Sequence record: MT446388.1 | Direction: 5' to 3' (one strand) | Length of the DNA stretch: 64,000 bases | Origin: Escherichia virus TH10 | Shown: piece after piece, positions 26,021 to 27,623 of the stretch | Numbering within the stretch: position 1 is the stretch's first letter | Layout of the letters: the number at the start of each line of letters is the position of its first letter | The notes under the pieces: generated by a model | Seen by the model: the letters and a program-made list of their open reading frames with translations, nothing else | Databases searched by the model: none | What the model was told of the DNA's origin: nothing | Program-made: the position numbers and the translations under genes

Positions 26021-26054
26021 GTTAAAAGACCCTCTTAAAGACCTTTTAAAAAGG
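26021..26054. repeat. conserved box copy 1 (gttaaaagaccctcttaaagaccttttaaaaagg)
   Basis: Near-identical to copies at 26149-26186 and 27428-27465. Confidence 0.85.
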
Positions 26055-26086
26055 TAAGTCTCATTTTAATGTAGCTGAGACTAACT
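26055..26086 (-). other. hairpin HP1 copy A (agtctca-12 nt loop-tgagact)
   Basis: Inverted repeat identical to 27466-27496; on minus strand followed by a short T-run. Confidence 0.6.
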
Positions 26087-26092
26087 ACCCAT

Positions 26093-26150
26093 ACCAGACC
26101 CTACCTTACCAAACCAGACCTCACTCTACCCCACCATACCGTATACTACC
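26093..26150. repeat. pentanucleotide-periodic array (NNACC)x12
   Basis: CC at exact 5-bp phase 26094 to 26150 with two imperfect units. Confidence 0.85.
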
Positions 26151-26186
26151 TCATTAAAAGACCCTCTTAAAGACCTTTTAAAAAGG
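26149..26186. repeat. conserved box copy 2
   Basis: cctcattaaaagaccctcttaaagaccttttaaaaagg. Confidence 0.85.
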
Positions 26187-26203
26187 AGCCTCCGAAGAGG
26201 CTA
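26176..26203 (-). terminator. rho-independent terminator of 26214..27259 operon
   Basis: minus-strand stem agcctc-ttcg-gaggct followed by ctttttaaaa; 10 nt downstream of stop at 26214. Confidence 0.65.
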
Positions 26204-26213
26204 CCTAGTCAAC

Positions 26214-26654
26214 TTAGAAAGGTTTTCTGCGTTGCTTGTTAATGTTAGCTTTCATAGCAGCTAAGTGGTTTTGCTGTTCAATTAGTCGTGAACGTTCTTG
26301 GTGGCTAAGTGCCATAGTGTTCACATTCTCAATCGCTTGAGTGGCTTGCTTTAAAGCACGACCAATCTTACCAGACATTTTACGTTTTGCAATAGTTGCT
26401 TGATGCTTAGGTTCAACCACACGATAACCAACACCCATTGAAGCAACCAGATAAATCTTCTCTTCTTTAAGAAGCTTCTCAATAAACTTCTCAAGTCGGT
26501 TTAGACGTGTAAGCGCATAAGCCTTCATTTCATCTTCGTACTTAACAATGTCACCTTGATAAGTTGGTTTCACAATACCTAAGAAGGTATCCATCTCAGA
26601 ATGTGATACAGTGTCACCGTAACTAAACTTTGCTGCTAATGCTTTTGTATTCAT
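26214..26654 (-). CDS. hypothetical protein (cassette gene 2)
   Basis: 146-aa ORF, basic C-terminus, 3-nt spacing from upstream gene. Confidence 0.5.
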   Translation of the reverse strand: MNTKALAAKFSYGDTVSHSEMDTFLGIVKPTYQGDIVKYEDEMKAYALTRLNRLEKFIEKLLKEEKIYLVASMGVGYRVVEPKHQATIAKRKMSGKIGRALKQATQAIENVNTMALSHQERSRLIEQQNHLAAMKANINKQRRKPF

Positions 26655-26656
26655 AA

Positions 26657-27259
26657 TTAAACGTTACCTTCTGAAATAACTTCTACAGAAAAACGACCAA
26701 AGCGTGGACGCCAATCACCTACACCACAAAGGTTGCCAGCATTTTCAAGAACCATCAGAAGTTCCTCTTTGGTGATTTGCTCTTCATCGAACATCAAACC
26801 GAACTCTACAGACCAGTCACGGAAGATTGGACGGTAGCTCATAACTCGTGCTGTACCAATCTTAACAGACTTAGCATAGATGAAGTCTGGATTCTTAGCA
26901 AGTTCTTGTGGGTTTGCTGGACAGTTCTTAATAGTCATTGGGAAGACTACATCTGTCAGCATAATGGCTCGGTCAATTACCTTACCAAGTTTGTTGAGTT
27001 TTGCACCAGACTTGATACAAGCCTCAATCATCTCACCGTTCATAACAAAACCAAGTTGCTCATCGTAGTAACAAGAAGTTACCAGTTGACTTTCTGCTAA
27101 GAGCGCATAGTCTTCGTCAGTCTTTTTACGTTTACTGGACAGAGACTTGTGATATTTTGTCAGAGGGTTTAATGGGTCTGACAGCGTATCGTTATGGCTC
27201 AGGAAAGGACGAGTACCAGTGATTTTGATATTTAACAGTTTCATAGCATTTAGCTCCAC
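26657..27259 (-). CDS. hypothetical protein (cassette gene 1)
   Basis: 200-aa ORF with no motif I recognise; bracketed by repeat regions. Confidence 0.5.
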
Positions 27260-27357
27260 ACTTTAGTTGATTGTTAAGTTGTTTGTAAAGAACCCTCAAC
27301 AGAAGACTCTTTAGAAACTTGGTAGATTTTTAACGTGGCTACTACCATCCACCCATA

Positions 27358-27429
27358 CCATACCGAACCTTACCTTACCAAACCAGACCGCGCCTTACCA
27401 AACCAGACCAAACATTACTTTACCCTACC
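27358..27429. repeat. pentanucleotide-periodic array (NNACC)x15
   Basis: CC at 27358-59, 63-64, 68-69 ... 27428-29 in constant 5-bp phase. Confidence 0.85.
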
Positions 27430-27465
27430 TCATTAAAAAACCCTCTTAAAGACCTTTTAAAAAGG
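27428..27465. repeat. conserved box copy 3
   Basis: cctcattaaaaaaccctcttaaagaccttttaaaaagg. Confidence 0.85.
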
Positions 27466-27496
27466 TAAGTCTCATTTTAATGTAGCTGAGACTAAC
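27466..27496 (-). other. hairpin HP1 copy B
   Basis: gtaagtctcattttaatgtagctgagactaac identical to 26055-26086. Confidence 0.6.
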
Positions 27497-27497
27497 T

Positions 27498-27595
27498 ACC
27501 CGCACTTTACCGCACCGGACCTTACCGGACCGCACATCACCGCACTAAACCAGACATCACATTACCTGACCACACCAAACCAAACATCACATTAC
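27498..27595. repeat. pentanucleotide-periodic array (NNNAC/NNACC)x20
   Basis: AC dinucleotide at every position ending in 4-5 and 9-0 from 27498 to 27595. Confidence 0.85.
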
Positions 27596-27623
27596 TTAAA
27601 AACCCTCTTAGAAGACTCTTAAG
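27591..27623. repeat. degenerate conserved box copy 4
   Basis: attacttaaaaaccctcttagaagactcttaag. Confidence 0.5.

Follow-up and report, generated by a model that had tools for sequence, protein, structure and literature searches.

What is encoded by the repeats, boxes and hairpins that lie clustered downstream of the DNA ligase gene in Escherichia virus TH10? The window analysed here is a stretch of 64,000 nucleotides (nt) of sequence record MT446388.1, and a sequence-only reading had singled out its positions 26,021 to 27,623 as four copies of a conserved box of ~38 bp that combine with promoters, arrays and hairpins into small RNA candidates. The window is assigned to a Felix O1-like myophage of the genus Felixounavirus; megablast matched it to 257 Felixounavirus-type records at ~92-94% identity, and Escherichia phage SUSP1 is also among its BLAST matches. 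In our view this Felix O1-like phage carries a VIPR (Viral Interference Programmable Repeat) locus here, of type II and of the SUSP1 clade (probability about 0.93). The VIPR system is already known, and the window belongs to the clade that is used as its model.

VIPR is the subject of two bioRxiv preprints from 2026. The first (10.64898/2026.04.26.720920) introduces the system with phage SUSP1 as the model. Its components are Vipr, which is a ~20-kDa minimal RAMP protein with RRM core, G-loop and thumb, the accessory protein Vap and guide RNAs termed vrRNAs. In these, 9-16 (up to 30) YNNGG repeats, in which GGY is conserved and NN hypervariable, precede a 3' tail that does not vary. In SUSP1, the sequencing of small RNAs (sRNA-seq) revealed four vrRNAs of ~100 nt, each a repeat tract and then a 3' tail; a Vipr pull-down recovers the vrRNAs, and Vap1 strengthens the defence (10.64898/2026.04.26.720920). 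The second preprint, on cryo-electron microscopy (cryo-EM; 10.64898/2026.04.26.720927), describes one Vipr protomer per repeat, with G1, G2 and Y3 flipped into protein pockets, whereas NN pairs with double-stranded DNA in such a way that every third target base is skipped, giving an R-loop triplex. In SUSP1 the protomers have been shown to build up a helical filament with its NN dinucleotides exposed, and this filament represses transcription.

The gene vipr (26657..27244, minus strand) encodes a minimal RAMP protein of 195 amino acids (aa); the listed open reading frame begins with a GTG at 27259, the protein with the ATG at 27244. Over its full length the product is identical in 191 of 195 positions to PDB entry 36pp, "SUSP1 Vipr protein" (E = 6e-128), which lies above the >90% cut-off by which the preprint defines the SUSP1 clade. 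The residues that hold G1, G2 and Y3, as named in the cryo-EM preprint (10.64898/2026.04.26.720927), are H17, E71, M72, R138, C173, D177, W178 and R179, and all of them are found at the same positions in the window protein. Directly downstream lies the accessory gene vap1 (26214..26654, minus strand, 146 aa), whose product is 99.3% identical to that of the second gene of the SUSP1-encoding contig (L022). The Vipr translation of this contig equals the PDB SUSP1 sequence, and its one array upstream and three arrays downstream of the genes agree with the four vrRNAs seen by sRNA-seq. A Pfam search left both cassette proteins without a match, and the PHROGs families that they hit have no known function (phrog_4652 for vipr, phrog_5926 for vap1); both genes are labelled hypothetical protein in every record inspected.

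The window and SUSP1 thus have nearly the same proteins (Vipr 98%, Vap1 99% identical), the same GGY/NN vrRNAs and tails, the same gene order and strand, the same position downstream of DNA ligase in an Ounavirinae phage and, as detailed below, the same satellite family as target with the same 1-nt skip. They differ in that SUSP1 is a Suspvirus and the window a Felixounavirus, in the NN sequences, and in the placement of the guides, two upstream and two downstream of vipr-vap1 in the window against one and three in SUSP1. Unlike SUSP1, the window also has a 19-unit tract whose halves match two different genes.

The four arrays have a period of 5 nt, being (ACCNN)n on the plus strand and (GGYNN)n on the transcribed minus strand, and are absent elsewhere in the 64 kb. 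With at most one mismatch, the pattern ACCNNACCNNACCNNACC gave 36 matches, compared with 0.13 expected, all on the plus strand within 25956-27586. Since all genes across ~22-33.5 kb are on the minus strand, the arrays should be transcribed as (GGUNN)n. In the direction of this strand, the repeat tracts comprise 19 GGYNN units in vrRNA-1 (27502..27596), 15 in vrRNA-2 (27355..27429), 12 in vrRNA-3 (26091..26150) and 13 in vrRNA-4 (25954..26018). A logo of 889 units from 69 unique arrays gave G 0.75, G 0.94, T 0.87 / C 0.10, N, N, i.e. D-G-Y-N-N. Among related loci (29 from IMG/VR, retrieved with the ligase as query, plus five annotated records) the NN positions and the number of units vary, and the 5-nt phase is almost never broken. 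This means that selection acts on G-G-Y at every unit, leaving NN free or diversifying.

Each tract is followed by a 3' tail. Three tail types were found, each near-invariant across loci, with a common stem that shows compensatory variants: GGUAG/CUACC in tail2, GGCAG/CUGCC in the third type and GUCG/CGAC in copies carried by the satellites described below. The tail of vrRNA-1, GGGTAGTTAGTCTCAGCTACATTAAAATGAGACTTACC (27464..27501, minus strand), is invariant across related loci; it is the hairpin seen in the sequence-only reading and consists of a 7-bp hairpin plus GTAG/CTAC and GGTA/TACC complementarity. The tail of vrRNA-3 (26053..26090, minus strand) has the same type of hairpin: the 26-nt core AGTCTCAGCTACATTAAAATGAGACT occurs twice with no mismatch, and the 31-nt stretch 26055-26085 is repeated at 27466-27496 save for one base (26055 versus 27466). 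For vrRNA-2, tail2 reads GGGTGGATGGTAGTAGCCACGTTAAAAATCTACCAAG (27318..27354, minus strand; stem GGUAG/CUACC), and for vrRNA-4 the tail of the third type reads GGAAGGATGGCAGTAGCCTTATAAAAAATCTGCCAAAT (25916..25953, minus strand; stem GGCAG/CUGCC), the latter being nearly invariant in all 30 related loci examined. On inspection, the GTAG/CTAC complementarity fits a pseudoknot; in the SUSP1 clade, a conserved vrRNA tail of ~40 nt with a pseudoknot is reported in the first preprint (10.64898/2026.04.26.720920). The covariance models of Rfam 15 yielded no match at gathering score in the whole window, and vrRNAs are not represented in Rfam.

Which DNA would such guides recognize? A blastn search of the locus against complete genomes matched ~90 nt of array plus tail (the tail2 region) in 152 E. 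coli genomes. The matched place is a satellite-like island of ~11 kb with genes for a serine recombinase, a baseplate protein, a tape-measure protein and an HNH endonuclease, several small genes and a long non-coding stretch; some of these satellites also have an adenine methylase or AP2-family gene. Among 5,426 complete E. coli genomes, 567 (~10%) harbour a relative of this island, inserted at wrbA/ymdF, tonB/yciI, a DUF72 gene or dinB. One example is the satellite of E. coli 2013C-3492 (L155, 5352-16070), located between wrbA and ymdF; others are L156-L171, and E. coli strains A3024, Q5 and EC12 are satellite carriers as well. The same E. coli satellite is reported as the target of SUSP1 (10.64898/2026.04.26.720920). 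No Vipr homolog was detectable in the satellites by local phmmer. Some of them carry one vrRNA of their own as a complete unit with no vipr nearby (L155 14920-15130; L156 12700-12900), made up of a TTGACA-17-TAAGAT promoter-like site, a leader of ~45 nt, 11-14 GGYNN units, a tail2-like tail with a compensatory stem change and, at the end, an intrinsic terminator.

We compared 66 unique guides (at least 9 units) of the related phages with 11 satellite variants, replacing GGY by wildcards of 0, 1, 2 or 3 bases. An NN match of at least 0.8 was seen for 0, 42, 1 and 0 guides, respectively, and with a skip of one base 19 guides reached at least 0.9. The best matches listed for the clade guides lie in or beside satellite islands. 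The 1-nt-skip rule is thereby reproduced independently, from public sequence alone.

For the four guides of the window, full-length comparison with the first satellite, L155, gave only null-level scores, and matches were seen only after sampling 17 satellite variants and considering blocks of at least 8 units, with 60 to 150 unit-order shuffles as the null. Units 9-17 of vrRNA-1 match the tape-measure gene of at least 8 satellites in 18/18 positions (site TTTAGCTGAAGCACCRAAACCAGCAAA; 0/60 shuffles), and units 0-8 match a gene for a 234-aa protein, also in 18/18 positions (L163 6318-6344, site CAAAGAGTTGTTCGTACAGAAAGAGCT; 0/60 shuffles). Units 5-12 of vrRNA-2 match at least 6 satellites in the intergenic stretch that lies upstream of this 234-aa gene (16/16; 0/150 shuffles). 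In vrRNA-3 all 12 units match at 21/24 positions, the core of 10 units at 19/20, in the intergenic region between the adenine methylase and AP2-family genes (L164, L167; 0/60 shuffles). Finally, units 0-7 of vrRNA-4 match the baseplate gene, with 16/16 in L155 and 15/16 in three others (0/150 shuffles). Over its full length vrRNA-1 matches at only 26/38 positions, and its tract looks like two fused 9-unit guides; each half, of 8-9 units, matches a different satellite gene, so that one filament of this bipartite tract may silence two loci. We found no self-target: the best skip-1 scores within the window (17-24 matched positions) equal the shuffle null, and the only perfect self-matches are the arrays themselves, at a skip of 3.

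According to our proposal, the four window vrRNAs would each consist of a repeat tract and a tail, ~100 nt in all, as in the near-identical SUSP1. One Vipr protomer would bind per GGY motif, building up a helical filament that exposes the NN dinucleotides; these would pair with double-stranded DNA, skipping every third base. The filament would make an R-loop triplex and repress transcription, and by this means the phage would silence a satellite that parasitises it.

Several points weigh against this interpretation. The vrRNA ends and sizes and the loading of Vipr are carried over to the window phage from SUSP1, by analogy, and both source papers are preprints. Tract 1, with 19 units, exceeds the stated 9-16, and several of its units are TGT or AGT rather than GGY. 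The window guides match the 17 sampled satellites only as blocks of 8-10 units, and over the full length their NN match is 0.68-0.88, with vrRNA-3 alone passing the preprint's threshold of 0.8. Skipping coincides with the wobble position of codons in only 5 of the 9 coding targets that were checked, a tendency and not a rule. The predicted folds have modest z-scores (-1.3 to -2.6), and the role of the box, to which we now turn, is assigned by inference.

Exact copies of the 26-nt box core, ACCCTCTTAAAGACCTTTTAAAAAGG, are found at 26029-26054, 26161-26186 and 27440-27465; the expectation from 100 shuffles was 0. A repeat search extended these to a 39-nt family at 26016-26054, 26148-26186 and 27427-27465 (92-100% identity) with a 62% copy at 27589-27627. 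The boxes keep to the 5-nt phase of the arrays, and on the minus strand each stands 5' of a tract: copy 1 (26021..26054) before tract 4, copy 2 (26149..26186) before tract 3, copy 3 (27428..27465) directly before tract 2, and the degenerate box, or dbox (27590..27627), directly before tract 1. The 5' end of the box, CCUUUUU, is the T-run of the hairpin or terminator that precedes it, and the remainder is a predicted 12-bp hairpin. In copy 3, where the T-run follows the tail, this hairpin is UUAAAAGGUCUU-UAAG-AGGGUUUUUUAA, its right arm deviating by one base from the other two copies. Pairing is preserved in two further versions of the box. One is the dbox, with a predicted hairpin of ~13-17 bp (stem up to 17 bp), which occurs in 16 sequence variants among relatives, all with palindromic arms ATCACTTAAG/CTTAAGTGAT, as read from the sequence. 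The other is a box-like copy just upstream of vipr (27287..27312, minus strand, between tail2 and vipr), with a predicted 12-bp hairpin AAAGAGUCUUC-UGUU-GAGGGUUCUUU that overlaps a weak promoter-like site at 27289-27260.

We propose that the box is not the core of function but a conserved punctuation mark between guides, combining the T-run of the preceding tail or terminator with a 12-17-bp hairpin on the 5' side of the tract that follows. Transcripts probably end or are processed there; we favour leaky termination or a boundary for processing because in the satellites the terminator occupies the position of the phage box hairpin. The parts of the two VIPR preprints that were searched do not discuss such an element. 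A box-like sequence, CTCTTAAAAG-N12-CTTTTAAAAAG, is also present at 33591-33623, in the divergent region upstream of the DNA polymerase gene, with both half-motifs exact and 12 nt further apart. Between its palindromic core, AGCTTTTAAAAAGCT, and that of the box, ACCTTTTAAAAAGGT, the flanks have changed in a compensatory manner (ACC...GGT versus AGC...GCT), pointing to a hairpin common to both or to the binding of a dimeric protein.

What had been noticed from the letters alone was real: the box is repeated as three exact 26-nt cores and a degenerate copy, two hairpins and a canonical terminator are in place, a promoter-like site is found at 27659-27686, and a variant of the box, with its wider spacing, lies near 33591. 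The box also recurs in every related genome examined; its absence from relatives, which was to speak against the proposed units, is thus not what we see. The predicted small RNA stands as far as minus-strand, GU-rich pentamer RNAs with a structured end are concerned, as sRNA-seq has revealed them in SUSP1, but its predicted size of ~170 nt contrasts with ~100 nt in SUSP1. The box itself has to give up the central place that it was given, since the functional core lies in the GGY/NN repeat tract, with the hairpin as the tail of the vrRNA. A long structured leader for the gene at 26657..27259, offered as the other option, is not needed, as vrRNAs also occur downstream of the genes and in phages without them. 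That the features bracket vipr and vap1, that they have a guide function with a satellite as target, and that each box folds into a hairpin had been missed.

On the minus strand, the locus would begin with P1, a putative sigma-70-like promoter (27659..27686, TTGACA-16-TATACT, 11/12 consensus positions) directly after the stop codon of the DNA ligase gene (27694-28830, minus strand), which borders the locus on this side. P1 is conserved in 30 related loci and is the candidate start of the locus transcript. It would be followed by the dbox with the 19-unit tract and its tail, a box with the 15-unit tract and its tail, vipr, vap1 and a predicted intrinsic terminator (26177..26202, minus strand), which consists of AGCCTCTTCGGAGGCT and then CCTTTTT (26202-26187), the T-run being the start of box copy 2. 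Beyond the terminator, the proposed order continues with a box, the 12-unit tract and tail, then a box, the 13-unit tract and tail, and ends at P2 (25872..25900, minus strand, TTGACA-17-TATTTT). This promoter-like site, which would serve a downstream 127-aa gene bordering the locus on the other side, carries a promoter annotation in phage ASO1B, too. Inverted repeats are seen at both promoter-like sites. The one at 27629-27664, GGTGAGTA...TACTCACC, overlaps the P1 -10 element, and a ligase read-through transcript could fold there; the same stretch includes GCTGGTGA, which departs from Chi of E. coli in a single base. Centred on the -35 hexamer of P2 is an inverted repeat of 19 bp (AAATAAGCTATAAAATCTG / CAGGTGTTATAGCTTATTT, minus strand, 25873-25919), a candidate operator to which the HTH_3 protein from 24938-25267 (minus strand) might bind.

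In the relatives, the interval between P1 and P2 was found in three states: ~200 bp with one array; ~340 bp with two arrays plus hairpin and box; or 1.6-1.9 kb with the two-gene cassette and 3-6 arrays. Flanks, boxes and tails are near-invariant, and the arrays are fully different in two of five positions. By tblastn, vipr was detected in 117 of roughly 257-294 related records. About half of the Felixounavirus genomes have neither vipr nor vap, yet keep one or two GGYNN arrays with intact tails at the same locus, e.g. phage ph2-2 (L003, 2040-2125), humlepung (L004, 2040-2260) and EC6; further such loci are L010, L028, L034, L006, L018, L030, L032 and L033. Of 15 orphan guides from phages without vipr, six have a satellite match of at least 0.8 with the 1-nt skip. 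This suggests guide-only loci that would use Vipr in trans from co-infecting relatives, or act as decoys. Some records labelled as Staphylococcus or Campylobacter phages, e.g. GU169904.1 ("Staphylococcus phage SA1") and MG065668.1 ("Campylobacter phage A126"), have Felixounavirus sequence inside, with vipr among it at 99.5% identity; a wrong label or contamination is the probable cause.

Arrays of this kind are not confined to the Felix O1-like phages. A scan of IMG/VR for six GGTNN units in a row found heterogeneous arrays in many unrelated viral contigs, intergenic and sense to the flanking genes, and Vipr homologs adjoin arrays in such contigs (local phmmer, E 1e-38 to 1e-5). This confirms the association of arrays with Vipr starting from the DNA side. 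Three array-bearing metagenomic contigs had essentially no megablast match to isolate phages and are characterised through phmmer only. In unrelated uncultivated contigs (L067 4870-7400, L073 10111-14027, L154 1083-1744, L044 739-818 and others) there are many GGTNN arrays, with up to 34 units and up to seven arrays per locus; in one contig of ~190 kb the arrays alternate with open reading frames of ~300 aa.

Could the repeats serve another purpose altogether? They might be stand-alone regulatory small RNAs, or a 5' leader or attenuator, with no guide function, or, as a variant, a multimeric TRAP-like protein might bind the GGU repeats and so control termination at the hairpin. The order of promoter, array, hairpin with T-run and gene is attenuator-like, and conserved triplets recurring every 5 nt are spaced as in TRAP binding sites. 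We nevertheless regard this as highly improbable: arrays are also found downstream of the genes and in phages without them, the adjacent protein is the solved Vipr, and NN matches external DNA under one skip rule, information that an attenuator would not need. Even less probable is a role at the DNA level, in which the arrays would be iterons, an R-loop or two-quartet G-quadruplex, an antisense-strand rut site or clusters of Chi-like or primase sites. The non-template strand is indeed strongly G-rich and C-poor, replication genes (ligase, polymerase) are around, and the boxes are AT-rich palindromes; however, neither G-richness nor R-loops nor rut sites need a strict phase with G-G-Y at every unit, and the GC skew of the window simply tracks gene orientation. 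This explanation would also leave the skip-1 target matches unaccounted for, as well as the constant co-occurrence of arrays with a Vipr homolog in unrelated phages. Given the identity of Vipr and the skip-1 targets, we set aside a TRAP-like attenuator, antitermination of the boxA/boxB/boxC type (GGUCUUUAAGA is similar to boxA of rrn), a Rho rut site on the antisense strand, a G-quadruplex of two quartets or an R-loop origin of replication, clusters of primase or Chi-like sites, and iterons or a centromere-like site. CRISPR (clustered regularly interspaced short palindromic repeats)-Cas was rejected, too: there are no unique spacers between identical repeats of at least 20 nt, and Pfam found no cas family in the neighbouring proteins.

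Two further ideas concern the modules within a VIPR locus. One is that the boxes, tails and arrays mainly serve recombination, by which guides would be reshuffled and the vipr-vap cassette gained or lost, similar to the promoter-early stem-loop (PeSL) cassettes discussed below; this would be compatible with a guide function. A 189-nt direct repeat (family D2) lies on either side of the vipr-vap cassette; the Felix O1 genome paper gives other direct repeats, and those of the locus are not among them. Besides this bracketing repeat, the three states of the P1-P2 interval with identical flanks, the resemblance of the vrRNA-1 tract to two fused 9-unit guides, and the mosaic arrays of close relatives (L006 and L033 have array 1 in common and a different array 2) fit such a history. 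No event has been directly observed, though, and conservation of the modules is equally expected from vrRNA biogenesis, recombination then being a by-product of repetition and not an alternative function; while this is the most credible of the alternatives, we consider it doubtful as the main role. The other idea, that the box is the promoter of each vrRNA and each guide its own transcription unit, seems to us unlikely. A weak -35/-10-like pair can be read in the box (e.g. TTAAAA-17-TTTAAT, minus strand), and the satellite vrRNA is self-contained, with its own TTGACA-17-TAAGAT promoter and terminator; yet our consensus scan made no promoter call in the box, and the box hairpin sits where the satellites have their terminator hairpin. 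Moreover, according to the first preprint, vrRNA1 was expressed and matured from vector promoters (10.64898/2026.04.26.720920). Taken jointly, a box acting as CRISPR-repeat-like punctuation for vrRNA ends and recombination, guide-only loci and bipartite filaments might amount to new biology, a suggestion that we put forward tentatively and with well below even confidence; the preprint parts consulted cover none of the three.

As a type II VIPR locus, the region invites comparison with other repeat-based systems. It resembles class 1 CRISPR-Cas (Cas7 on crRNA) in that a RAMP-fold protein polymerises on a guide RNA, with thumbs that flip bases periodically, in its RNA-guided recognition of foreign DNA, and in the variable guide that is capped by a conserved structured part. 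In contrast to class 1 systems, the VIPR locus has no repeat-spacer array, no cas1/cas2 and no other cas genes; two of five guide bases read two of three target bases, the outcome is repression rather than cleavage, and the system is encoded by a lytic phage. Vibrio phage ICP1 uses CRISPR-Cas to target the PLE satellite, and PLE DNA is destroyed. Common to both cases are a lytic phage, guides against a chromosomal parasitic satellite and a guide content that varies between isolates, whereas the machinery and the guide logic differ, VIPR type II being reported to silence transcription. TRAP on the trp leader RNA of Bacillus is a closed ring that senses tryptophan, and the spacers of its RNA are without information. 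One subunit per conserved trinucleotide, 2-nt spacers and a 5-nt period are alike in the two systems, but in VIPR an open helical filament would form and the spacers are the guide. Finally, PeSL cassettes of T4-type phages are modules of promoter and stem-loop around variable early-region genes; they are not known to encode guide RNAs. In its short, repeated, conserved modules and its two-gene cassette, present or absent between close relatives, our locus may be likened to the PeSLs; its repeats differ in having a defined RNA function, next to which any role in recombination would be secondary.

In VIPR, a newly reported form of DNA recognition by guide RNA, the code is non-contiguous and one protein of ~20 kDa suffices; it has been proposed as an ancestor of the CRISPR RAMP proteins. 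The window provides a clean natural example of it in a well-known phage group that includes wV8, Mushroom and Moogle, some of which are used for typing and biocontrol. A simple DNA pattern is sufficient to find the arrays and, through them, Vipr homologs of unrelated phages. Judging by the targets, a satellite of ~11 kb that resides in ~10% of the complete E. coli genomes parasitises Felix O1-like phages, and such parasitism bears on the host range and the yield of therapeutic and biocontrol phages.

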